Part shown: one piece after another, positions 3,201 to 60,296 of the stretch
How the letters are laid out: each line of letters starts with the position of its first letter
Position numbering within the stretch: position 1 is the first letter of the stretch
Assembly (NCBI GenBank): GCA_951406725.2
Contig: OX597817.1
Span: 5,270,001-5,334,000 of the forward strand
Source of the DNA: Octopus vulgaris
Lineage: Eukaryota
Reading direction: 5' to 3'
Length of the DNA stretch: 64,000 nt
Position numbers and translations under genes: made by a program
Notes under the pieces: generated by a model
Seen by the model: the letters and a program-made list of their open reading frames with translations, nothing else
The model's database searches: none
Told to the model about the DNA's origin: nothing

Positions 3201-3281
3201 CTTTCGACATATGTTTCGAAGACAACATGGTTTATTCCAAAGGAATAAACGGTGTAAGATGCAATCTTCTCATCAGGAAAG
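3201..3281 (-). ncRNA. Type I hammerhead ribozyme motif (intact core)
   Basis: Minus strand reads ctttc-CTGATGA-gaaga...(inner hairpin gtttattcc/ggaataaac)...tcttc-GAAA-catatg-TC-gaaag. Stem I ctttc/gaaag, stem II gaaga/tcttc, palindromic stem III, GUC cleavage triplet. Confidence 0.85.
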
Positions 3282-5801: not shown

Positions 5802-7047
5802 CAAGGATTGGACAAAATAATGTAAAAACCGTAAAATTTAAAACAAATTTACATGGGTATGGTGTAGGACCGCCTTTGGCAGTAATTACACCTTAAATTG
5901 TATGAGGTATGGACTCGCACAAAGTTTTCAAAGGGATTTTTGTCCATTCTTCAGCTAAAGCAGTCTCCAGTTCATGTAGTGATGATGGTGGAGTATATCG
6001 ACTCCTTACTTTTTTTTCTAAATTACTCCGTAAATATTCAATAATATTGAGATCTGGTGATTGGGGTGTCCAGATAAATTGTTCAACTTCACTAGAATGT
6101 TCCTCGTACCATTCAGTAACAATTTAGCTGTGTGAAATGATGCATTATCATCCTGAAAGATTGTATTTCCTTCGGAAACACTTCCGCAACCATAGGATGA
6201 ATTTGATCAGATAAAATGCTTAAATAGTCTTGACTATTAATTCTGCCATGAAGGAACCCATTGAGCCGGCAGATTTCGAAGAGCATCAAGATCCTCCTCT
6301 ATGTTTCACAGTTGGAAGAAGGCAGTCCGGGTCAAATGCTTCTTTTGGTTGTCTCCACACGAATACACGGCCGGTGGTCGGAAATAAGGTATAGGTTGTC
6401 TCCGAGAAAATAACATTCATCCATGGCTCTAGGGACCAATTCTGTAGGTTTTTACTCCACTCCAAAGGCTTTGCAACGTTTGTTGCAAAGTAGTGGTTTT
6501 CTGATTGCAGTCCTCCTATAAAATTCGGCTTTTTGTAGCTCCCGGCGAACAGTTTTTGTGGAAACTGGGTTCTCGTGGTGGTTATTAAGCTCTGCAATAA
6601 TTTTGGGAGCTGTACTTTCGTGATCCTTTCTAACAATTCGCATAAGAGTCCGACGGTCCCTTTCTGAAAGCTTTGGTTTTCTTCCGGAGTTTTGTTTCGA
6701 CGAGGAGATTTCCCCCCTCTTTCTTAAAGGTTGTCATTACTTTCGAGACAGTACTTCTTTATACACCAAACATTTCGGCTGTTTTCGTTACACAAGTGCT
6801 TTTCCATACGAGCACCAACAATTTGACCTCTTTGAAAGTCCGAGAGATCTGTGATTTTATTGAATTTCAATCAGCTTTATCTGATGATATCTGAAAAGAA
6901 ACAGCAATTTTAGCAAAACATATTAAAGCAACAGTAATAAAAATAAATCAAAAACACAAAAATAAACAAGCTTTTGACGGTTTTATAAATATTTCAAAAT
7001 TATGATGCTATAATTCTAGGTTTTTCCATTATTTTGTCCAACCCCTG
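5802..7047 (-). mobile_element. Tc1-family DNA transposon with both TIRs and a frameshifted transposase
   Basis: 29-bp TIRs CAAGGATTGGACAAAATAATGTAAAAACC / CAGGGGTTGGACAAAATAATGGAAAAACC (3 mismatches), TA flanks. Minus-strand motifs: VSTKTVRRELQK..RKPLL, WMNVIFSE, LPTVKHRGGS, FQDDNASFH, WTPQSPDLNIIEYL. Confidence 0.92.
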
Positions 7048-8072: not shown

Positions 8073-8345
8073 TTAGAGACAAAACCACTATTTTGCAAAT
8101 CAAACAAAGAAAGACTTAATCCAATACATTAAAAAATTTTAATATATATATATATTCGCCACTACAATTGTTTCATGTCTCTTCTCAGGACATTCATCAG
8201 GTGGATTTCAGATTCAGATATAGTCCAACACTTTGTCAGTTATTTTAGGCTCCATTTGTTGTCTTTATTTCCAATGTTTTTGGATGGATTTTGGAATAGT
8301 GTTTTATTGCTCTCACATGTTAAACCCTCTCTCTGTCTTTCTCTT
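8068..8345 (-). mobile_element. Short non-coding PLE-terminus-like module inserted in (TA)n
   Basis: (TA)n on both sides; contains a hammerhead at 8159-8204; start aattagagacaaaaccactattttgcaaatcaaaca is shared with 56553. Confidence 0.55.
8159..8204 (-). ncRNA. Type I hammerhead ribozyme motif (intact core)
   Basis: Minus strand reads ccac-CTGATGA-atgtc-ctgagaaga-gacat-GAAA-caattg-TA-gtgg. All three stems pair, stem III is palindromic, GUA triplet. Confidence 0.88.
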
Positions 8346-15200: not shown

Positions 15201-15673
15201 TGTATTGTTGGAAAACATATATAGTCTGGTTGGAATCTTACTTCAAGTTCCTGGAACTCACTTCTATAACTTTATAAGGATATTTACACCCTCTAAGATG
15301 TTTGGAAAACCTATATGAAATTTAGCTGAAGAGTACTTGACATTATATTTGCTGTAATATTTGCAGCTTTAATAAAATGTTTATAGTATGAAACAATTGT
15401 ACTAAACTACTGATCCATTCTTGTTGCTTATTTTTTGGTTACATACATACATACACACATATTAGTAAATTTCTGAGCGAGATGTAAACAGTTGCAGCAC
15501 GACATCGTGAAGTATGTTTGCCACCTAAATGTGACTGACTCATATGGGATGATGCTACTGTTGTTTATTGACCCAGGAAGACATCTCCTCCAGCTGGCTA
15601 ATGACACAATGTCTGTGTCCGATCAATATATGCGAAGGGAAATCAGTGTTCCCATCTGTAGCCTTATGTGATA

Positions 15674-18296: not shown

Positions 18297-18396
18297 AGTT
18301 GGAACGGAACATCCATAGTGTTTCTGGATATAAATATATACATCTGTTTGTTTTGAACACCACCTGCCTTCGTCTTTTGTCTTTTTCGTAAACTCT

Positions 18397-18457
<61 letters not shown>

Positions 18458-18483
18458 ATATTGTATATATATGTATTTGTATA

Positions 18484-18545
18484 AATGGCGGTGCCCCAGC
18501 ATGGCCACAGCTCATGAGCTGAAACTAGAATCAATCAATCAATCA
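18484..18545 (+). mobile_element. Extreme 3' end of a LINE (same family as 20433-21032) with (AATC)n tail, inside (TA)n
   Basis: aatggcggtgccccagcatggccacagctcatgagctgaaactaga differs by 1 nt from 20980-21025. Confidence 0.85.
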
Positions 18546-18569
18546 TATATATATATATATATATATATT

Positions 18570-18619
<50 letters not shown>

Positions 18620-18649
18620 AACCGATAGAAATCTCTAAAAAATTCGTTA

Positions 18650-18710
18650 TTACCGTATTGGTCCAATTTCGGGGTTAATTCACAAGAAATTGTCCCCTCT
18701 TCAGCGGCAA
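18650..18710 (-). ncRNA. Type I hammerhead ribozyme motif (intact core)
   Basis: Minus strand reads ttgccg-CTGAAGA-gggg-acaatttcttgtgaattaa-cccc-GAAA-ttg-gac-caa-TA-cggtaa. Stems I, II and III all pair; AUA triplet. Confidence 0.85.
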
Positions 18711-19055
18711 ACACGCGAGATATAAATGAAATACTTATTCATACCCATGGACGAAGCAAGCACCAAGTCCTGAGCAGACTTAAGTGCCCCAAATATATCA
18801 AAAATACCTTTAAAGGCATTTTTTGATATGCTGGCCATTGATAAAACTTTTTTCCCGGAAAAAAAAAAAAAATTATCCTATATTAATTATAAATTGATTA
18901 GTGTTCACTTCCGGATTCTATCACTCTGTGAAAGTTTCTAGTTCGAATCACACGTGTCTCGAGGTGCACCGAAGATTTTTCTATTTTGGATATATTTGGG
19001 GTACTTAAATCTGCTCAGGACTTGGTGCTTGCTCCTTCCGTGGGTATGAATAAGT

Positions 19056-19394
19056 AAAGGGTAAAGACCCCCTTCGGTCATGAATGACCATGGGATTGCA
19101 CCTAGAAAGTTACCCTCCTAGACACAAGTCCGGGCAAGGTTGTTTATGGAAAGCCAGCAGTCGCCCATGCATACCAGCCTCCCATCTCCACGCCACCAGT
19201 GTTATCCAAGGGAAAGACAAAAGTCGATACAGCTTGGCACCTGTGACGTCGCAACTCATTTCTACAGCTGAGTGAACTGGAGCAACGTGAAATAAAGTGC
19301 CTTGCTCAAGGACACAACACCCAGCCCTGTCCGGGATTCGAGCTCACAACCTCACGATCGTAAGCTCGACGCTCTAACCACTGAGCCATGCGCC
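19056..19394 (-). mobile_element. tRNA-headed SINE, family B
   Basis: rc head ggcgcaTGGCTCAGTGGttagagcg...gagCTCGAATCCcgg (A/B-box-like); body shared with 45403 and 59966. Confidence 0.88.
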
Positions 19395-19412
19395 CATTTA
19401 TATCTCGCGTGT

Positions 19413-19473
19413 TTGCGGCTGAAGAGGGGAAAATTTCTTGTGAATTAACCCCGAAATTGGACCAATACGGTAA
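19413..19473 (+). ncRNA. Type I hammerhead motif, second copy (one stem-I mismatch)
   Basis: ttgcgg-CTGAAGA-gggg-aaaatttcttgtgaattaa-cccc-GAAA-ttggaccaa-TA-cggtaa. Confidence 0.78.
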
Positions 19474-19692
19474 TAACGAATTTTTTAGAGATTTCTATCG
19501 GTTTCTTTCGAGACGCATAAATGTAATGGTTATCGACAATTTTTTGTTTCGGCGTATCTGGCATTAGAATTTTTCTTCTGTCCTTATCTTGTAAATTATG
19601 TATAAATTTTACCTTTAAAGGCATTTTTTGATATGCTGGCCATTGATAAAAACTTTTTTGCCGGAAAAAAAAAATATTTATCCTATATTATA

Positions 19693-19755
<63 letters not shown>

Positions 19756-20432
19756 GTGTGTCATGTATGTATGTATGTACGTATGTATATATGTGTATGT
19801 ATGTATGTGTTAGTGGTTTCCAGTAAAAAGTCAGTTTCTTATACCAGGATCAAACCATTAGATCTCTCCCCGGTGCGTTCCCGTCATGCAGTTTGTCTAC
19901 AGCTATGGTGAAAGTTTTCGGGTCATTTGCATACTTTTTACTGTTGATGCTGATATAGTATTCTCTTCTAACTGCATTTAGACACGATGTATTAAGTTTG
20001 AAATCCTACTTTTGTTCCAGATTGTCAAACATACGTGTGTTTTTACGTGTGATAGTTGTTGTGTATATATTGGTACTAATATTCCAGTAATTGATATCAC
20101 ATGGTTCCATATGCTCTCTCATCGACATCGTCCATAACTTTCAACATTTGAGCTGTTGGAAGTTTTCTTAATCTTGTTAAGAATGACCTCTCGCTTAAGA
20201 GTTGTTTCTAAAATGTAGAAAAGTTTTCTATGAACTGTGGTTTCAGGATGTTTCTAAGTTGAATATATCTTACGGTTGTCTCTGTTGAATCAGTTACATT
20301 TACAGAAACAGAAACAATTGGCCAGTTCTCAGCGTTGTGAAAATCGATTTACATTACGAAAGCAAACCATTTTTTGCCAATGCTGTTTCGCAGTAAAGGT
20401 GCTTAAGTATTTTTTAAATGCTTCATGAGCAT

Positions 20433-21032
20433 GACTATTACTCTCAGCTATGGTCACCACCCAGTGTCAAATTAATCTCAGAACTTGAGGCAATCCAACG
20501 AAGCTACACGAAGAAGATAGCCTCTATGCAGCATATAAGCTATTGGGAAGTACTCAAGAGATTAAGGCTTTATTCCTTAGAGCGTTGGCGAGAATTATAT
20601 GCCATAATATACATCTGGAAGATCCTGGAAGGGCTTGTCCCAAACTTTGGCATCGAGAGTTACACAAATACTAGAACTGGGCGCCACTGCATAGTGCCAA
20701 GGACTCCAAATTTGCCATCAAGATGTAGGACAAATACTGCGGTAGCCTGGGCTTCAGAGGTCCACAGCTCTTCAATATCCTCCCGAAGGACCTGAGAGAC
20801 CTGCATGGGGTGGATGCAGATGTCTTTAAAATAAAACTGGACCTCTTCTTGTCGGGTATCCCAGATGAACCAACTTCACGGCAGGAGGTGCAGATGAGGG
20901 CAGCTGCATCAAACTCTCTCATGCACCAAATGTCAATTGCTAAAAAGCATTCGTGAAGTAAAATCATGTAGCAACACCGAATGGCGGTGCCCCAGCATGG
21001 CCACAGCTCGTGAGCTGAAACTAGATGAAATG
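20433..21032 (+). mobile_element. 5'-truncated CR1/L2-group LINE 3' fragment (frameshifted)
   Basis: DYYSQLWSP..LEAIQRSYTKKI..LRLYSLERWRELYAIIYIWKILEGLVPN, then SLGFRGPQLFNILPKDLR..FKIKLDLFLSGIPDEP. Homologous to the C-terminus of ORF 39812-42220. Confidence 0.88.
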
Positions 21033-31698: not shown

Positions 31699-31731
31699 TT
31701 TAACGTTTCGAGCGGAGCTCTTCGTCGGAAA
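31699..31731 (-). ncRNA. Minimal hammerhead-like variant within a (TA)n-flanked module (31600-31810)
   Basis: Minus strand reads ttt-CCGACGA-a-gagc-tcc-gctc-GAAA-cg-TT-aaa; core deviates (U4C, extra A). Confidence 0.5.
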
Positions 31732-32626
31732 CAAAGGAGAATGAAAGATCCCGAGAAGGGAAGACAGAGGAAAAAAGATTTTTGCTGGTGGTGCTCAAGA
31801 GATCACATGTTATATATATATAAAGAATATGGAGAGTCTGAATGCAGTAAAAGCAATTTATTTACATAAATGTCGATTACATAAGGCCTACGATCGTTTC
31901 GATATCTACCTTCATTTCTTTTTACAATTAAATAGTTGCATTACGAATTTAAAAAGTAGAGATACTTTCAAGGCGAAAAGTGACATATTTCTTTACACAT
32001 TAAGAGATTGAGAATTCATTATAGACTAACATAACATCATGCCATTCTTGTGTGTATGTGTTAGCATTTTCGCTCGAAAATGAATTGCTCCTGTGTGTCT
32101 TTTTTATGTATGTGAGTGTGTCAACTTATTTGTCTTCGGAATTCTGTTCTAAAAATAGCCAAAATATAAAGTTTGACCATAGCAGGACAGTGGTTAGATG
32201 TCGTCCCCGAGAATTTAAGTCATACTACCAATCCCGCCAAAAGAATGTATATTGGATACCTGGATGTCATTTTCCTCCCTACGTACATGCTAATGGAATA
32301 GAAAGATATACAATATATATATTTCTATATTTATTTCAGGATCTATTTATTTTATTTCTATTTATGTAATTAAATTTTGAGAAATTCAATTGATGGTATA
32401 ATTTATCATTTTTATTTTCTAGGTGTATTATTTTCTAGGTGTTTAAGGTTAATATATATTTTTTTTTATTAAACTAATCTGTCTACTTCAAGAGTGATAT
32501 GATTCTCTATGTATCATATGTACAGGGCTCGATCTTAACCAGTGGTTTCTTTCAATCTGTGAGTGAACATTTCACTCTAAGATTTGTACCTGCGTTTAAT
32601 TTAATTTCGTCATAGAATATTTACTG

Positions 32627-34219: not shown

Positions 34220-35710
34220 ATGCTCGTTGCTACCATTATTCAAGGCCTCGATGTCAACAAAGGTCACGGCCCTGACGGCATACACCCACGGGTTATCAAA
34301 GCGTTGGCTCCGGTCATCTGCGAGCCCTTAACACGACTATTCAATATGTCATTGGCGACGGGTGTTATACCTGCAGACTGGAGAACAGCGATAATCTGCC
34401 CAATTTTCAAGAAAGGGAGCCGCGAAGACCCGCTTAACTACTGACCGGTTTCCCTTACATCAATTATCAGCAAGATGTTCGAAACCATCCTTAAGAAAAG
34501 TATGATGCTCCACCTCCTAAACACAGCCTCTATCTCTGATTCCCAACACGGCTTCGTGCCGAAGAGATCATGCTTGACCAACCTACTAGTAATGGAAGAA
34601 TTGATGACGCGCATCCTCGATGATAGTGATGCTGTTGACATCGTTTTACTGGACTTTGCCAAAGCTTTTGACTCGGTAAACCACCGCCTATTGCTTGTCA
34701 AGCTTCAAGCATATAGTTTCCATCCGGATATTGTACGATGGGTTGGTGTCTTCCTCTCAGATCGCTCCTTCCAAGTCCAAGTTAATGGTTCGCGGTCCGA
34801 CGTCTCTAGTGCGAGCAGTGGCGTGCCTCAAGGTTCAGTGCTTGGGCCCTTGTTGTTCTTAGTCTTCATAAATGACTTGCCCGACGACCTCACGCAACAC
34901 ACCCTTCTATTTGCCGACGATATCAAACTGGTCGCTCCTCGCGATAATATAGAGGATCTTCGTCGATGCCTCCACCAAATTTGGAAGTGGTCTAACAATT
35001 GGGACCTGTGTCTGAACGTGTCAAAGTGCTGTCATCTACCTGTCGGCTCTACTCCTGCAACTCAACTTGATTTCGAACCGGGTCGTCTGCTGCTGGAGAG
35101 GACCGATCAGGTAAAGGAACTAGGTATCTTGGTGGATTCCTCCTTTTCGCCTTCGGCCCAGTGCGTCCATGCTGCCAACAAAGCACGCGGAATTCTGTTC
35201 TTGATTCGACGGTCATTCGGAATGCTCACAGCAGCCATATTCCTACCACTCTATGTCACGCTAGTGAGACCCATATTGGAGTATGGGATTCAAGCCTCTT
35301 CTCCTTATCTCCTCAAAGACACACAGCATCTCGAAAGAGTCCAGAAGCTGGCTACCCGCATGGTTCATGGTCTCAAAAATTTGTCCTACGAAGAAAGGCT
35401 GAGGACGCTCGACCTTTATTCTCTTGAAAAACGCCGCCGCCGTGGTGATCTCATTCTCGCCCACAACATCATAAGCGGAAAGTGTAACCTCTCGAAAGAG
35501 CTGTTCTTCACTCCTGCTCCAGAGCGTCGGCTGCGGGGTCATTCCGAAAAGCTCTACCTGCGACGATTTCATCTCAATCGAAGGAGAGGAGCTTTCTCCG
35601 TCCGGGTTGCGGATCCGTGGAACAAGCTGCCAGACGAGATGGTGAAGATGCCGACGACCGCTTTGTTCAAAGCCTCCCTGGACCTCAAGTGGCCTGAACT
35701 CTTTACATGA
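34220..35710 (+). pseudogene. LINE ORF2 reverse transcriptase, one in-frame stop
   Basis: KGHGPDGIHP..PIFKKG..NY*PVSLTS (TGA at 34442-34444 where Arg is expected), QHGF, LDFAKAFDSV, SGVPQGSVLGPLLFLVFINDL, LFADD, LYSLEKRRRRGDLI. The two ORF-track segments are in the same frame. Confidence 0.92.
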
Positions 35711-35793: not shown

Positions 35794-37392
35794 GAGAGAG
35801 AAATAAATTCCAGTAAATTCACCGATATATGGATAAAGAGGGGAACGTTTGGATATGAGACAACCCTGGAAAGAGCAATCCCTTTCATTACAAAACCTGA
35901 AATATGCGTGTATGTGTGTGTGCATGTGTGTGTGTGTGTGTGTAGAAAAGGACAAGGTAGTCAGAATTTTGGATGATTATATATATTTTTATTTACATTT
36001 AGTGCTCTTTTCCGTTTTCAGATTTGTCAAAAAAGTGATTTACATAAGAACAGTCGGCTTCGTCTTTTTATATAAAGTTGAAACTGATAATGATTTAGAA
36101 ATTGAGTGAGAGAGAGAGGTAGGGAGAGAAAGAGGGGGAGAGATGAACGAATTAGTAAGGAAGGTGCAGGTGTGAAAGAGGAGGCGAGAGTGGAAGATAG
36201 AGTAGAGAAGAGAAAAGAACGTAGGAGTGAGTTTGGGGGATTTGTGAAGGAAGAGAAAAGAAAGTAAAAAACGTTTGAGGGGGAGGTAAAGGAGGTGTGG
36301 TTTTTTTATCAGTTTGTTCAAACTTGTTCGGTTGTTGTGTTTTCCCACTAGGTGAACTTTTGGGTGGGGAAGAAATGGAATTTTTGTATTAAAGTAGTCA
36401 AAGTTTTAAATTTTCCAGTAAGAATTGTAATTAAATTTCAGGGTCTTGTTTTTCATTCTTTTTATTCATTAGTGTAAGGATGTGGTCAAAATTTTTCGAT
36501 TACATTTCCAGATATTGTTTTTGATTTAGCCTAGTATGAATATGTTTGTGAAAAAGTGATTTTTTAAAAGAAATTCAGATCATATGTATAATTGAGAAAC
36601 ACCTCCGTGCACTTTAGCTTTTCTCAGATTGTATTTAAAATCATAACTATACTTACTTAGAAATCATTCTTTCAAAAACATAGCCATACAGGGCTAAATC
36701 AAGAACGACCTAGCACCTTCACACATACACAAATGTGTATTTCTTTTGCATGTTTGTGTTTTTAATACATGTATACATACACGTGTGTAATTATATTTCC
36801 CTTGGAAGCGTATTTCATTTACAACCCTATTTATTATCTACTTTTTTTTAATTTTAGATGCAAAGACATTTACATTGGTGTATTCATCTATTGCTTCTTT
36901 CTTTGAATTTGTATTCAGCCATTGATCCCTGAAATCAAATCACAAATAGCTGCATGCTGAGTACGTCTTTTATTTGTGGAGTATACATTATCAGCTTCTT
37001 CTCTGTAGTAGAGTTCAATCTTTCGGCAACCATGAATCATCCTGAAGATTAGCCTATTAGTTTTCGTCCCAGTACGCTTGTATGTACGGGTGTACACCCA
37101 TAAATACGCATATATATAGTTATTTGTATATTTTACATGCATATGGATGTTGATGTAATAAGTATTATATAACCAACAAGATTATGAAACAGTTGTAAAT
37201 GAATGAAATAAACATTATTCTGTCATATCCCTTCTCTATCCGGGCTACAAATGTTTCATAGCGGGTGGAGCCTCAGAAGTGGTAAAAATCCAAGCGCAGT
37301 ATATACCGCCGGCTACTCCTCAGGGAAAGGATATCTAGATTAAATTAAATGTTACATTGTCGTAAGGATGTACATGTTGACGCATGGAAGAT

Positions 37393-37677: not shown

Positions 37678-38001
37678 TTGACTGACCTTGACATTATAGA
37701 CAAATTTGACACTTTTCTTCTAGGCATGATTATATACGTATACTGAAATACATGTGTGCAAAAGATAGTAAAGAATGAAAATAACTGACTAACAGAAATT
37801 ATACTTTCTAATACAACGGGCAGAAAGTAAATAAGAAATTTTTACGGAGAATACAGAATTGTACGGGTTGAAGTGAAATTTGTCATTGAACCATAGAGTC
37901 AGTATCAGAGGAACCCCAAAAATTGCCGTTAACAAAATATAAACACTAAACTGTTTCAGAAGTGAATAAAATTTTTTTAGGGAAATTCACTAAGATTTTT
38001 T

Positions 38002-38445
38002 CCTTTTACTTTCCTTTTACTTGTTCAGACATTTGAGTGTGGCCATGCTGGAGCACCGGCTTTAGTCGAACAAATTAACCCTAGGACTTATTCTTTGTAA
38101 ACCTCATACTTGATTTATATCGGTCTTTTGCTGAACCGCTAAGTTAGAGAACATGAACACATCAACATCGGTTGTCATGTGATGATGCGGGGACATGTGT
38201 GTGTGTGTGTATGTGTGTGTGTCTATGTCTGTGTTTGTCCCCGCATCATCACATGACAACCGATGTTGATGTGTTCATGTTCTCTAACTTAGCGGTTCAG
38301 CAAAAGACCGATATAAATCAAGTATGAGGTTTACAAAGAATAAGTCCTAGGGTTAATATGAGTGGCTGTGTGGTAAGTAGCTTACTTACCAGTCACATGG
38401 CTCCGGGTTCAGCCCCACTGTGTGGCACCTTGGGCAAGTGTCTTC

Positions 38446-38486
<41 letters not shown>

Positions 38487-38648
38487 ACGGGCTTTTTTGA
38501 GATTCCGTCTACCAAATCAACTCACAAGGCTTTGGTTGGACCAAAGCTATAGTAGAAGACACTTGCCCAAGGTGCCACACAGTGGGGCTGAACCCGGATC
38601 CATGTGACTGGTAAGTAAGCTACTTACCACACAGCCACTCATACGCCT
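38002..38648 (-). mobile_element. SINE family A carrying an internal double inverted duplication
   Basis: Arms 38074-38195/38236-38357 (122 bp, no mismatch seen) and 38357-38452/38548-38643 (96 bp, 1 mismatch). Confidence 0.9.
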
Positions 38649-39277
38649 ATAAGTGTACGGATTTAAGTGAAATTTTCCAAGGTACTTCTATTAGTAAATT
38701 ATGAATTTAGATTTATCAGTATTTCCGTCAAATAAAAAAAAAGCACAATACGTTTCAAAAGTAAGTAAGAAATTTGTAAGCAAATTTAACGAAGTGTAAA
38801 GATTGAAGTGAAATTTATGGAGTTACTTCTGTCAGTAAAATATATATGAAATTACCTTCATCAGTAATTGTGATCTTCTTTCTGTCAGTAATTTGTCGTT
38901 GTTGTTTGTAAACAGCGGTTGGAAACTTACAGTGAAAACAATAGCGATTGAACTTAAAGTGAAAACAATAACATCTGAAAAATGAAAATGAAAACAATAG
39001 AGAGCGAGTGAGATATAGAGAGAGGGAGAGAGAGAGCTTGGTAGTTAGACAAATAAGATAGATATAGATATATAGTTACAGAGATATGGATAGATATAGC
39101 AATAGAGGGTGATGGATAGACACTTATAGAGTGACATGGGATTGTCTATCTTAAGTAAGTTTATGTGTTTCCTACACATGGTTAGGCAGAAACTGGATAA
39201 TTGCATAGTACAAACACGGTATCTTTCCAGGTTTCTAATCCCTATTTCTTTACGTTATGTATATTAATCAAAGAAAT

Positions 39278-39553: not shown

Positions 39554-39586
39554 GTCTCTTCGATTAATATATAGTCATACAAACTC

Positions 39587-39666
<80 letters not shown>

Positions 39667-39806
39667 GCATACATATACATATATATGTATCCTTATACAT
39701 ATATATATATATATATACATGCACACATATATATATATATATTCATATACATATATATACACGCATACATATATATACATGCACATATATATATATATAT
39801 ATATAT

Positions 39807-42313
39807 CATATACGAATGAGTTTTTCTTGTCCCAACTTGTCCTTGCACCAACAAGACATCAGAACATTTTGGACCTAGTGTTTAGTAACCACACTAACAC
39901 TATACATAACGTTACAGTGGAAAAAACCCTTCTTTCAGACCATGACATGGTTCTCTGTAACATGAAATTCCACCAGCCGAAAGCTAATCCTAGTGACCTC
40001 CCTCCAGCCCACCCATTTGACAACATGGATCCCCATAATGCCAACTGGGGTGCAATCAGGAACGAGCTATCACATGTTGACTGGTCCTTTACACATACAC
40101 ACATCTCCACCAACCATAAAACATCTTGGCAGATCTTTGTAGACACCGTCACAGACATATGTGCAAAACACTCCCCAACAAGACCTGTGAACAAAAAGTG
40201 CAGAATCCCCCAAAACAGAAAAACCATTATCAGAAAAATAAAAAGAACAAACAAAAAAATTAACAAACTAAAGTACTGCCAACAGCAACACACACATTCG
40301 ACGGCTATCTCACTGCTTGAATCCAAAAAATATAACCTCCAACAATGCATGAAGACCCTCATCAATAACCAAAGATCAGCTGAGGAGAAGTGGGCCATTG
40401 AAAAAATCAAACTCAACCCCAAAGTGTTCTTTTCATTTGCGAGGAAACGCAGGGTCACTGTCTCCATTGTTGGCCCTCCAATTGATGAAACTGGCACTCT
40501 CCAAGATAACGCCAAATCCATGGCCGAGATACTGCAGAAACAATACTGCTCTGTTTTCAGCAATCCTGATATGGCCGATCTGGGATGTATCAGTGATGTC
40601 AACCCCCAACACACTATATCGGACATAACGTTTAGTGCCCCTGATGTCTTAGCGGCGATAAACGAAATAAAACACAATTCAGCAGTAGGCCCCGATAGGT
40701 TCCCTGCTTGTGTCCTGAAGGTGTGTCGACACCAACTTGCATCTCCCCTTGCTAATCTGTGGAGAAACTCACTGGATGCTGGCTATATTCCAAAAAACCT
40801 TCTGTCCCAGTCTGTTGTCCCAGTTTTCAAAAAGGGAAACAAGTCCCTTGCAGTGAACTACCGTCCGATCTCACTCACCTCTCATATCATCAAGGTATTT
40901 GAGAGGGTGGTGAGATCTCGAATAACCCAATTTCTGGAAAGCAACAGACGGCTGATCTCCAACCAACATGGGTTCCGTAATGGAAGGGACTGCCTAACGC
41001 AGCTCCTGCATCACTTTGAGGACATTTTGAGAGCTTTGGGAGAGGGCTCCAACACCGATGTCATCTACCTTGATTTCAGTAAGGCCTTCGACAGGGTCGA
41101 TCACAAGATCCTATTGAAAAAACTATCCAACATTGGTGTCTCTGGAAAGTTACTGAAATGGATCAAGTGTTTCCTGACAGACAGATCTCAACATGTTGTA
41201 GTTGAAGGGGTAAAATCAAGCCCAGCCAAAGTCAGTAGTGGCGTTCCGCAAGGCACTGTGCTGGGCCCACTTCTTTTCATCATTTACATTAATGACATTA
41301 ATGACATCATCAAGCACAGCAACATAAAAATCTTTGCAGATGATTCCAAGCTACAGAAGGTCATAAATGAGGCGAGTGACCGGACATGCCTTCAGTCAGA
41401 TCTACTGGCTGTTATCCAATGGGCAGAAAAAAACAATATGCTGCTGAACGAGGATAAATTTGAGTTAATCCACTTTGGAAAAGAGGATGCCCTGAAACTC
41501 CCATACTCCCTTCCTTCAGATGAAACTCTCGCGGCGTCCAACAACATCAGAGACTTGGGAGTAATTGTCGACAACAACATAAGCTGGGCCACTCATATAA
41601 ACACCAAAGTTGACATGGCCCGCAGAATGTGTTCCTGGATTCTCAGAACTTTCCAGTCGAGAGATATCCACACCATTATCCTTCTCTTCTCCACTTTTGC
41701 CCGACCCCACCTTGAATACTGTTGTCCACTGTGGTCTGCCCACACAATACAAGGTATCATAAAAGTTGAAGCACCTCAAAGGGCAATCACAAAAAAGATA
41801 GATGGCATGACAGGCCTCGACTATTGGGGTCGACTAGAAAAGCTAAAACTCTATTCTCTCCAACGTCGTCGTGAGCGCTACATCATCTGCATGATGTGGA
41901 AAATATTCCGTCAGCATTGCCCAAATGATGTAGGCATCACCTTTAAGGTACATCCAAGGCTTGGGCCCCGTGCCATCCGCCCAAAACAAAAATCGCACTC
42001 TCATCTCATAACAACAATACGGCACAATTATTTCACCTCAATTGGCCCCGCTCTCTTTAAGATTACACCAAAACTCATTAAAACAGAAACTGACCCTATA
42101 GGGTTCAAGACGTCTTTGGACAGATTCCTTCAAGAAATCCCGGATAAACCCCCTACACCCGGATATGTCTCTGTAAACAATAACTCTCTACTTGAGTGGG
42201 CCATAGTGCCCAAATTCTGACTTGACAGACTTCACCAGGTGGTGCTATTAAGTTAGACATGGCCTGGGCCAATAATGGGCCGAAACCTATCAAAGTATCA
42301 AAGTATCAAAGTA
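39807..42313 (+). mobile_element. Young LINE insertion in (TA)n with (TATCAAAG)n tail
   Basis: TA-rich microsatellite on both sides; 3' UTR ggtggtgc..catggcctgggcc..gggccgaaacc followed by tatcaaag x3. Confidence 0.92.
39812..42220 (+). CDS. CR1/L2-group LINE ORF2 (C-terminal part of APE endonuclease plus reverse transcriptase), 5'-truncated but uninterrupted
   Basis: [21 protein letters not shown] (APE), [67 protein letters not shown]. The track ATG at 39665 comes from the microsatellite. Confidence 0.95.
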
Positions 42314-45402: not shown

Positions 45403-45706
45403 GGCGCATGGCTCAGCGGTTACAGCGCCGAATTTACGACCGGGATGCGTGTTGTGTACTTGAACAAGACACTTTATTTCACGTCGCTCCAGTTCACTCA
45501 GCTGTAGAAATGAGTTGTGACGTCACAGGTGACAAGCTGCATCTGGCTCTTGCCTTCCCCTTGGATAACATCGGTGGCATGGAGAGGGGAGTCTGGTATG
45601 CATGGGCGTCTGCTGGCCTTCCATAAACTAACTTGGCGGGACTTGTGCCTCGGAGGGTTACTTTCTAGGTGCAATCCCATGGTCATTCGTGATCGAACAG
45701 AGTCTC
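45403..45706 (+). mobile_element. SINE family B (B-box region deleted)
   Basis: ggcgcatggctcagcggttacagcg...cacgtcgctccagttcactcagctgtagaaatgagttg...ctaggtgcaatcccatggtcattc. Confidence 0.85.
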
Positions 45707-49587: not shown

Positions 49588-50617
49588 GGAACTAAAACAG
49601 AAACAGCACCTCGTTGCAAAGATGGTAAGATACGACCAAAGAATGAAGGGTTACCACCAGAATACGTTATTCAGAGTAGATCAGAAGAGATTCTATAAAG
49701 AAATAAATGGACAGTGTACAGATGAAATGTTGATACCAGATAACATTGAGAGTCAAAGATTTTGGAGTGACATCTGGAGCAAAGACAAAGAGAACAAGAA
49801 GGATTCTGAATGGTTGCAAGAACTGAAACAAACAGTAGTCTGTCCAAAACAGGCAGAACTAGTCATTTCAGTTAAGGAAGTGAAGGATATCAGCAAAAAA
49901 ATGAGCAACCGGAAGGCCCCGGGACCAGATGAATTTCAAGGCTACTGGATCAAAAAATATACTCTCAACACCTTGTTAAATGCCGACCAAATAACACCAG
50001 AGTGGTTGACATTAGGTAGGACAGTGCTGTGCCTGAAAAACATTGAAAAAGGTAATACGGTAGACAATTACAGGCCGATATCCTGTTTGTCACTTATGTG
50101 GAAGTTATTGAGTGGAATAGTCGAAGAGTCAATGTACAAACATCTGGGAAAAAATGGAGTCCTGCAACATGAGCAGAAGTGTTGCTAGCGTAAGTGCAGA
50201 GATACCAAGGATCAATTCCTGATAGACAAAACTGTACTTAGAGACTGCAAGAGGAGGAAAAGTAACTTATCCATGTCATGGATAGACTATTGTAAGGCGT
50301 ACGATATGATCCCACATTCTTGGATTATGGAGTGTATGAACCTATTTGGTATTGCATCGAATGTAGAGCGATTGCTTGGAAAAAGTATGGCGAATTGGAG
50401 GAGGGACCTGACGGCATACAGAAGAAGCTTAAGGACAGTAGAAATTAGGAGGGTCATCTTCCAAGGGGACAGTCTGTCCCCACTGGTCTTTGTACTGTGC
50501 TTGATACCGTTAACACTGATTCTGAGCAAAGCAAAAGCTGGGTATGTATTCAAAACCCGCCAACAAAAAGTCAACCATTTGTTATTCATGGGTGACTTCA
50601 AACTTTATGGTAAAGAT
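49588..50617 (+). pseudogene. R4/Dong-clade LINE reverse transcriptase fragment
   Basis: QNTLFRVDQKRFYKEI, FWSDIWS, KAPGPD, NYRPISCL, EQKCC*RK..TKDQFLIDK, WIDYCKAYDMIPHSWI, IFQGDSLSPL, NHLLFMGDFKLYGK. Both track ORFs share one frame with a single TAG; catalytic DD changed to GD. Confidence 0.88.
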
Positions 50618-51553
50618 TCTGAAAGTTCACCCTTTCAAAGAATATTATATGATAATGATACAAATAAACACTGCACTGCAGCCATTGAAATAAACTTATT
50701 CACTGTGACTGTGGCTCACACTGCTAAATATGTAAAAATATTAATAATGTCTTTACAAAATCACACCTTGTATAAAAAGACACACTGAATAATATAATCC
50801 TAGGTACAAAATGTCAGGCGAAATAAAAGATAGAATGGGCACGAGTAGAAGATATTTGAACATACACCTGCTCAGTTTGTATTAACATGGTGATTAACAG
50901 GAACGTCAGCATTTGCGTGATTACTCAAATCCCTTCAAATCCCTCTCAACCGTTTTAACATAAAATTACGTTATACTGAACAATATAGTCATACACACTT
51001 TTAAAAACAAACAGCTTAGAGCTGATCTTGTGTTTGCTAAGCATGACTGACCTGCGTCTAGGGCTAAACAACAAAGGTGTGCAATGTTAATCGAAAACTT
51101 AACTTCGTTAAACGTTAATCCGTTAACCAAGAAGTTAACTTCAATAACAGTTAATCAGTTAGTTCTTTAAAAATATGACAAAAGTTATTGATAAACCGTT
51201 AACGCTAATTTTTATTTTAGAAAAAGAAACAAAAATCAGTTTTTGCACTAAATCCACCTAAAAATATCTTTAAAAAGTGACCAAACTATAAAATGTGCTT
51301 TTTGGCCTTTCCTAACGGCTTTAGATCCCCAAAACTATAGTTTTGTCAGTGTTTTTTTTTTTTTTTTTTGCTTTAGACTGTTAGATTCTTTAAATGCTGA
51401 ATTTATAGTTTTAATTTGTAAGAGATCTAAAATGGCTGATTTCATAATTTAAACTTTTTTAAGGTTTTTACAAGCATTTAGAGCCAGGAAAGGGTATTAA
51501 AAAATAAATAAAACAATATTAGCATTAAACTAAAAAGGTTTATTGATAACGAA

Positions 51554-58591: not shown

Positions 58592-59010
58592 CCTATTTCT
58601 TTACTACCCACAAGAGGCTAAACACAAAGAGGACAAACAAGGACAGGCAAACGGATTAAGTCGATTGTATCGACCCCAGTGCATAACTGGTACTTATTCA
58701 ATCGAGCCCGAAAGGATGAAAGGCAAAGTCGACCTCGGCGGAATTTGAACTCAGAACGTAACGGCAGAAGAAATACCTATTTCTTTACTACTCACAAGGA
58801 GCTAAACACAGAGAGAACAAACAAGGACAGACAAACGGATTAAGTCACTTATATCGACCGCAGCGCGTAACTGGTACTTAATTTATCGACTCCGAAGGGA
58901 TGAAGGGCAAAGTCGACCTCGGCGGAATTTGAACTCAGAACATAACGGCAGACAAAATACAGCTACGCATTTCGCCCGGCGTGCTAACGTTTCTGCCAGC
59001 TCACCGCCTT
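58592..59010 (-). mobile_element. SINE family C with tandemly duplicated body, flanked by 20-bp direct repeats
   Basis: Units 58592-58776 and 58777-58958; flanks tccattaaataacctcctat at 58577-58596 and 59010-59029. Confidence 0.9.
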
Positions 59011-59965: not shown

Positions 59966-60296
59966 AGGGCCCCCTTCGGTCATGAAATACTATAGGATTG
60001 CACCTTGAAAGTTTCCTTCCGAGGGGCAAGTCCAGGTAAGATTGTTTATGGAAGACCAGCAGTCACTCATGCATACCAGCCTCCCCTCTCCACGCCACTG
60101 ATGTTGTCCGAGGGAAAGGCAAAGGCCGATACATCTTGGCACCAGTGACGTCGCAGCTCATTCCTACAGCTGAGTAGACTGAAGCAATGTGAAGTAAAGT
60201 ATCTTGCTTAAGAGCTCAACACATAGCACGGTCTGGGAATCGAACTCACCACCTCAAGATTGTGAGTCCGATACTCTAATCACTGAACCATGAGAC
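59966..60296 (-). mobile_element. SINE family B
   Basis: Colinear with 19056-19394. Confidence 0.87.

Follow-up and report, generated by a model that had tools for sequence, protein, structure and literature searches.

In the genome of Octopus vulgaris, a non-coding insert of 1.07 kb that has (TA)n runs on both sides is probably a non-autonomous, retrozyme-sized element that was integrated in trans into (TA)n by the reverse transcriptase (RT) and GIY-YIG endonuclease of a Penelope-like element (PLE). The insert was studied within a 64-kb window, meaning the whole stretch of DNA analysed, and on the plus strand it reads (TA)n, A inverted, B1, C, the 5' part of A, a SINE, the 3' part of A, D, B2 and (TA)n (Table 1). 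Its direct part amounts to 1.17 tandem units (B-C-A-D-B), which stand head-to-head with an inverted partial copy (A) whose 3' end faces the left flank.

Table 1. Features of the insert and its flanks (positions are those of the window)
Feature	Positions	Strand	Remarks and evidence
Left (TA)n flank	18545..18617	.	TRF and sequence
Inverted arm A	18619..18806	-	188 nt; ribozyme-sense on the minus strand; blastn and alignment
Type I hammerhead, intact copy	18650..18710	-	Descriptor scan and folds
Predicted long irregular hairpin just upstream of the hammerhead	18719..18799	-	z -3.35, 1/200 shuffles; region chosen post-fold
35-nt near-palindrome at the inversion junction	18795..18829	.	blastn, alignment, junction sampling
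Direct repeat B1	18805..18885	+	81 nt, without hammerhead
Unique segment C	18886..18981	+	
Arm A 5' part, direct-unit copy	18982..19056	+	blastn and alignment
SINE-like insertion	19057..19394	-	338 nt, GC 0.53; blastn relatives, boundary alignment
Arm A 3' part, direct-unit copy	19395..19504	+	blastn and alignment
Second hammerhead motif	19413..19473	+	C3 19419, H17 19467; descriptor scan and folds
Unique segment D	19505..19609	+	
Direct repeat B2	19610..19690	+	Right outer (3') end merges into (TA)n
Right (TA)n flank	19691..19755	.	TRF; continues as (TATG)n to 19808

A first-pass annotation of this DNA had proposed an inverted arm of ~190 bp, a direct repeat of ~80 bp, the lack of an ORF and (TA)n on both sides, all of which our analysis supports. 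Pairing 18619-18728 with 19504-19395 gives 108/110 identical positions and pairing 18732-18806 with 19056-18982 gives 69/75 (blastn, alignment), so that 177 of the 185 compared bases match, with the far end of the arm at 19504 and not, as annotated, at 19505. The direct repeat of 81 nt (18805-18885 versus 19610-19690) is 93.9% identical over 82 columns (blastn, E 1.5e-28), and with the SINE removed the spacing from B to B is 470 nt with a GC content of 0.345. The longest stop-free stretch in the element is 80 aa and none of its frames reaches the Pfam cut-off. The description of the insert as well preserved was too generous, however, given 8 differences between the arms in 185 bases, the damage to one ribozyme and the SINE that interrupts one arm. 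Since B1 is internal to the insert, B is ruled out as a target-site duplication (TSD), and within the (TA)n at the insert's ends a TSD is unreadable. TATA- and Inr-like words were seen by eye in C at a spacing of 19 or 35 nt, which is not canonical, and we make no promoter claim for them.

TRF placed the (TA)n arrays at 18545-18617 and from 19684 onward. The left flank is part of a longer array that starts at 18400 and is broken by a LINE 3' fragment; the short interrupting segment (18484-18545) shares 21 identical nucleotides with 20980-21000, the end of a LINE-like remnant, indicating that this array has taken more than one insertion. By a rough estimate, the chance of both insert ends adjoining one of the window's 64 arrays is ~1e-4, and the AT-rich, microsatellite target on both sides is weakly diagnostic in so TA-rich a genome.

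The insertion that splits the right arm replaces 3 nt matching 18729-18731 of the other arm and has no TSD, as had been annotated and as the alignment of the arms confirms; the final 3 nt of its tail repeat match bases of the target. It has relatives in the window at 45438-45705 (87%) and 59970-60292 (82%; blastn), and it carries A- and B-box-like motifs, read by eye, which we take to be of tRNA type. The SINE is confined to one arm, where it falls in the hairpin strand predicted to lie 3', and the simplest view is therefore that it inserted later. Two further SINE-like arrangements were observed in the window, namely a rearranged copy of a ~400-nt family with inverted duplications at 37991-38708 (38357-38452 versus 38548-38643 at 99%, and 38071-38360 self-inverted) and a 184-nt unit present as a head-to-tail dimer, 88% identical, at 58592-58960.

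The left arm contains a type I hammerhead motif with a conserved core, three helices and an NUH triplet (C3 at 18704, H17 at 18656; stems I, II and III of 6, 4 and 4 bp), in which stem III is quasi-palindromic and cleavage is predicted after 18656 at an AUA triplet, a triplet found in a natural viroid hammerhead (PMC1636495). The annotated claim that each arm holds a hammerhead stands for the core, which is intact in both arms, but not for stem I, as in the right copy the second stem I pair (19417) is a G.G mismatch, and the left copy alone retains this stem intact. A strict descriptor requiring stems of at least 4/4/4 bp gave one match in the window, 0/60 in block-shuffled windows and 0/20,000 in arm shuffles, and a relaxed 3/3/3 descriptor gave 1/20,000 in arm shuffles; the type I hammerhead motif is far beyond chance. 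Rfam produced no gathering-score hit in the window and no hammerhead among 23 hits at E<=10 in 18300-20000, and ARAGORN reported no tRNAs. Rfam overlooks such ribozymes, with no gathering-level hits where the descriptor finds four motifs in the window.

As a monomer, the hammerhead fold is not the minimum free energy (MFE) structure (-11.3 versus -15.3 kcal/mol). Co-folding two 61-nt left motifs without constraint gives the double hammerhead as the MFE structure, with stem probabilities of 0.96/0.70/0.69, the left-right heterodimer keeps one good site (0.81/0.78/0.73), and in two co-folded right copies stem I is not in register (0.10). The double hammerhead is lost when co-folded in a 112-nt context, and the energy gained on dimerization was rejected as evidence since 424/500 shuffles gain as much. 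We therefore predict from these context-sensitive folds that the ribozyme works poorly as a monomer and better as a dimer; a short palindromic stem III and dimer cleavage are described in a review of hammerhead ribozymes (PMC6765202). A 12-nt self-complementary stretch with G.U pairs occurs at ~19486-19497 (and 18626-18637), 7 nt from the left arm's end, and as the driver of intermolecular pairing in the longer co-fold it could be a dimerization site.

Elsewhere in the window, type I hammerhead motifs with palindromic stem III and sequences unrelated to the insert occur at 3206-3276 (-), 8163-8200 (-) and 15326-15401 (+). The first two end 41 and 8 nt, respectively, before (TA)n and both co-fold as double hammerheads. 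No inverted or tandem partner was found for any of the three, which are likely solo PLE-type remnants. Three of the four hammerhead motifs in the 64 kb end within 45 nt of (TA)4, against a background of 8%. A hammerhead-like motif with an altered core was also noticed by eye at ~31700-31735 (-), in a short element between (TA)n runs, and was missed by the descriptor.

For folding, the 470-nt unit was assembled SINE-free with the left arm, and it folds better than shuffled sequences on the ribozyme strand only (circular z -3.5, 0/60 shuffles; linear z -2.8, 0/60), the opposite strand giving a circular z of -0.9 (12/60) and 9/60 when linear. Control 470-nt windows were kept at 22 of 42 positions after microsatellite removal, and two of the resulting 44 strand-windows (12 shuffles each) reached z <= -2.8, both at one inverted repeat near 36500. 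This sole control window folding as well contains a MITE-like 46-nt inverted repeat (36517-36706; 83%, 98 nt apart).

The structure signal comes from a ~250-nt module in which a predicted closing helix (18954-18976 with 19493-19516; -25.1 kcal/mol, 3/1000 shuffled partners, a helix picked once the fold was known) surrounds both the upstream hairpin and the ribozyme domain. At this hairpin five of the six positions at which the arms differ are unpaired when the left arm is folded (P 0.011), one of which would pair in the right arm and bring the value to P 0.057, and divergence between the arms is uneven (6/75 versus 2/110, P 0.063); together these figures give only hints of selection on the hairpin. 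The end of the left arm falls within an internal loop of the predicted closing helix. An Anolis PLE RT is described as starting internally in a stem-loop, using uncleaved RNA and nicking AT-rich DNA on both strands (PMC11167929), and by analogy we speculate that the left arm's end may mark an RT start.

D and B alone have no unusual structure (z -0.2, 40/100 shuffles), and the 470-nt unit thus rests on the single B repeat. This would also suit a one-off remnant of an autonomous PLE, that is, a pseudo-LTR whose ORF was lost by deletion or by a template jump at D-B2, with no mobile 470-nt family behind it. We consider this explanation unlikely, even though the direct part has only one ribozyme, the window holds no other copy and PLE insertions are often truncated or internally deleted according to two accounts (PMC8557442, PMC3846280), because no coding remnant is present in any frame and the right end stops at B into (TA)n, where a second pseudo-LTR would continue into C-A.

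Integration of a non-autonomous unit by PLE enzymes, our preferred reading, draws on the head-to-head junction between the 5'-truncated inverted copy and the direct part. The near-palindrome at this junction is centred on a perfect 10-nt palindrome (18807-18816), with which B natively begins, A and B1 have 2 nt in common, and immediately past the palindrome B is similar to the start of A. Across the junction the inverted match is exact over 10 nt, a length reached by none of 3850 sampled alternative junctions (maximum 8; 4000 drawn, 150 dropped as B1/B2 pairs, the samples overlapping and hence not independent). Palindromes at inverted junctions, mostly of head-to-head polarity, have been read as self-priming (Arkhipova 2013; PMC3846280), and the origin of inverted pseudo-LTRs is stated as unsettled in this and a later account (PMC8557442, PMC3846280).

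On each outer side of the insert a ribozyme-sense 3' end abuts (TA)n, the direct part exceeds one unit in length and both arms cross the predicted cleavage site, so that an RNA template, if there was one, would have been uncleaved or circular. These three features point to target-primed copying of an uncleaved multimer or circle, as has been proposed for PLE tandems (PMC4209133) and retrozymes (PMC7229834). Under this model, a nick in (TA)n would prime cDNA synthesis on the 3' end of B, which closes with TA-like bases, and the RT would copy ~551 nt through the cleavage site of such a template. The inverted arm could then be formed in one of two ways: the cDNA end may snap back at B's native palindrome and switch to the start of A, which is similar, or a second cDNA, target-primed from the left flank, may anneal through the B palindrome. 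Snap-back with template switch and twin priming with palindrome annealing each reproduce the junction sequence; the snap-back hairpin is weak, not being the best DNA fold of the predicted cDNA end. Decay of the copies, entry of the SINE into the right arm and damage to stem I of the right-hand ribozyme would have followed.

Junction microhomology and a palindrome would suit any fold-back repair, (TA)n arrays are prone to breakage and the divergences of the arm and of B are similar, as one event predicts. A pre-existing solo hammerhead element beside fragile (TA)n could accordingly have been rearranged by template switching during DNA repair or replication, with no new retrotransposition. We regard this as quite improbable in view of the absence of any duplicated flanking host sequence, the ribozyme-sense 3' ends that adjoin (TA)n on both outer sides and a layout that reproduces the PLE pattern known from the literature. 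A DNA-type or tyrosine-recombinase element (MITE, foldback, Helentron-like or DIRS-like) with the hammerhead as a passenger would account for the long inverted repeat and, if TA-targeting, for the TA flanks, but is very unlikely because the inverted repeat is terminal on the left only with 186 nt following the right arm, the two termini are not complementary as those of a TIR element or MITE would be, B is a direct repeat instead of an internal complementary region, and the structure is strand-specific with G.U pairs.

The interpretation as a PLE-mediated integration is best judged against known elements. PLE copies have been described as a partial tandem with an adjacent inverted 5'-truncated copy at (TA)n targets, and non-autonomous PLEs are included in that account (Craig 2021; PMC8557442). 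Like the EN+ PLEs (Penelope/Poseidon, Neptune), the insert combines a partial tandem with an inverted truncated copy in head-to-head orientation, a junction palindrome, a type I hammerhead with a dimer-forming stem III and an AT-rich target. Unlike these elements, it has no RT/GIY-YIG ORF and so lacks the single ORF with both domains that defines an autonomous PLE; its hammerhead lies in A and not in B, whereas that of EN+ PLEs lies inside the direct pseudo-LTR; its inverted arm lies 175 nt from its direct copy; and its 3' ends (the equivalents of 19504 and 19690) differ by ~185 nt, compared with an optional tail of 30-40 nt that separates alternative 3' ends in EN+ PLEs. As in non-autonomous PLEs, a partial tandem gives a direct terminal repeat (B1/B2, 81 nt at 470-nt spacing). 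The first-pass annotation had read the insert as a non-autonomous PLE product with inverted and tandem pseudo-LTRs. The head-to-head polarity, the junction palindrome, the dimer-folding stem III and the retrozyme-sized unit support the first part of that reading, and the inverted arm and 81-nt direct repeat are in keeping with the second, but the direct repeat is not canonical, having no hammerhead and 3' ends that differ as given above.

Similar to metazoan non-LTR retrozymes, for which a PLE origin or mobilization has been proposed (Cervera and de la Pena 2020; Li, Clavereau, Pollet 2026 preprint), the unit is non-coding, low in GC, structured and a few hundred nucleotides long, and it bears a single type I hammerhead motif whose stems have canonical sizes (6 and 4 bp). 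Retrozyme monomers are given as ~300 bp with GC <45%, and those of mussels as 350-390 bp (PMC7229834), values to which the size and GC of the unit come near. The insert differs from retrozymes in its PLE-style inverted arm and in a direct part of just 1.17 tandem units that holds a single ribozyme, and consequently it cannot excise a monomer. It also lacks the two consecutive complete ribozymes by which an active retrozyme is defined in a preprint that derives vertebrate retrozymes from pseudo-LTRs (10.64898/2026.07.22.740005).

Dual hammerheads 100-700 bp apart on opposite strands have been reported (Cervera 2014; PMC4209133), and those of the insert are 380 bp apart without the SINE. The Cercyon-related dual min-HHRs of Schistosoma mansoni likewise have opposite-strand hammerheads a few hundred base pairs apart and no ORF, but their helix II is 7-8 bp and helix III is absent, while the insert has a helix II of 4 bp with an extended loop and a helix III of 4-5 bp. 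Non-autonomous Chlamys PLEs such as MRC1 resemble the insert in being ORF-less with pseudo-LTRs and head-to-tail units. Naiad and Chlamys elements are reported in one account to be without canonical hammerheads (PMC8557442), which argues against Naiad as the insert's partner.

The first-pass annotation had stated that transcription in either direction gives one sense ribozyme plus its antisense. This is literally true, but with head-to-head arms a transcript crossing the locus from either side makes the antisense copy first, and the ribozyme is therefore predicted to be sequestered in a long duplex in either read-through RNA. In both full-length read-through folds all three stems have a probability of 0.0, and the motif pairs with the distant arm (0.96). 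Transcripts starting between the arms alone escape the duplex, and stems I and III are still rarely formed in them as monomers. Based on these folds, in which read-through would trap the ribozyme, the locus today is likely inert or a minor source of dsRNA.

No second copy of A, B, C or D was found in the 64-kb window by blastn or by nhmmer --max, whose best outside hits had E values of at least 1.1, and GIY-YIG was not matched among 150 window ORFs scanned with Pfam (the longest 149 of 449 complexity-passing ORFs and one added RT ORF). Translated searches, weak negatives for a non-coding repeat, gave 0/1 homologous candidates for 19448-19687(-), no hits in 1.84 billion representatives for 18629-18823(+) and 0/5 candidates among longer proteins for 19397-19564(+). 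The hammerhead pattern was not found in prokaryotic genomes, and 18619-19056 had no match in phages and plasmids, these being weak negatives as well. Among the papers listed in literature searches there was no account of this family or of an inverted retrozyme insertion, and Repbase, Dfam or octopus repeat libraries may hold it. Recently active Penelope families are reported in Octopus vulgaris (PMC13282606). The window itself is repeat-rich, with 103 tandem-repeat rows (TRF), three LINE-type RT ORFs and one Tc1 fragment. The RT ORFs (RVT_1) are at 39575-42217, 34445-35707 and 49589-50785; the longest open stretch, part of it translated microsatellite, measures 881 aa, and among at least 120 listed matches the best one for the longest ORF is 53% identical and comes from Argonauta hians, the one species named. 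Broken Tc1/mariner transposase fragments (HTH_Tnp_Tc3_2, DDE_3) are at 5896-6733 (-).

The arrangement as such is already known from other animals and, as every element of its layout has been published for PLEs, a single decayed insertion matters little. By analogy with those elements, the locus would work like a PLE insertion of a retrozyme-like unit. Its value is that a short ORF-less unit with a readable junction provides a compact test case for both retrozyme mobilization and the origin of inverted pseudo-LTRs. PLE mobilization of animal retrozymes has been argued from co-occurrence and sequence kinship (10.64898/2026.07.22.740005, PMC7229834). A more specific scenario, possible but doubtful in our judgement, is that a cephalopod circular-RNA retrozyme was caught in the course of Penelope-type integration, a 470-nt circle having been copied for more than one round, with the arm made by palindrome fold-back and ended at the closing-helix loop. 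If this were true, direct structural proof that retrozymes are mobilized by PLE enzymes would come from a family of such copies, which would also tell self-priming and twin priming apart as sources of PLE inversions.
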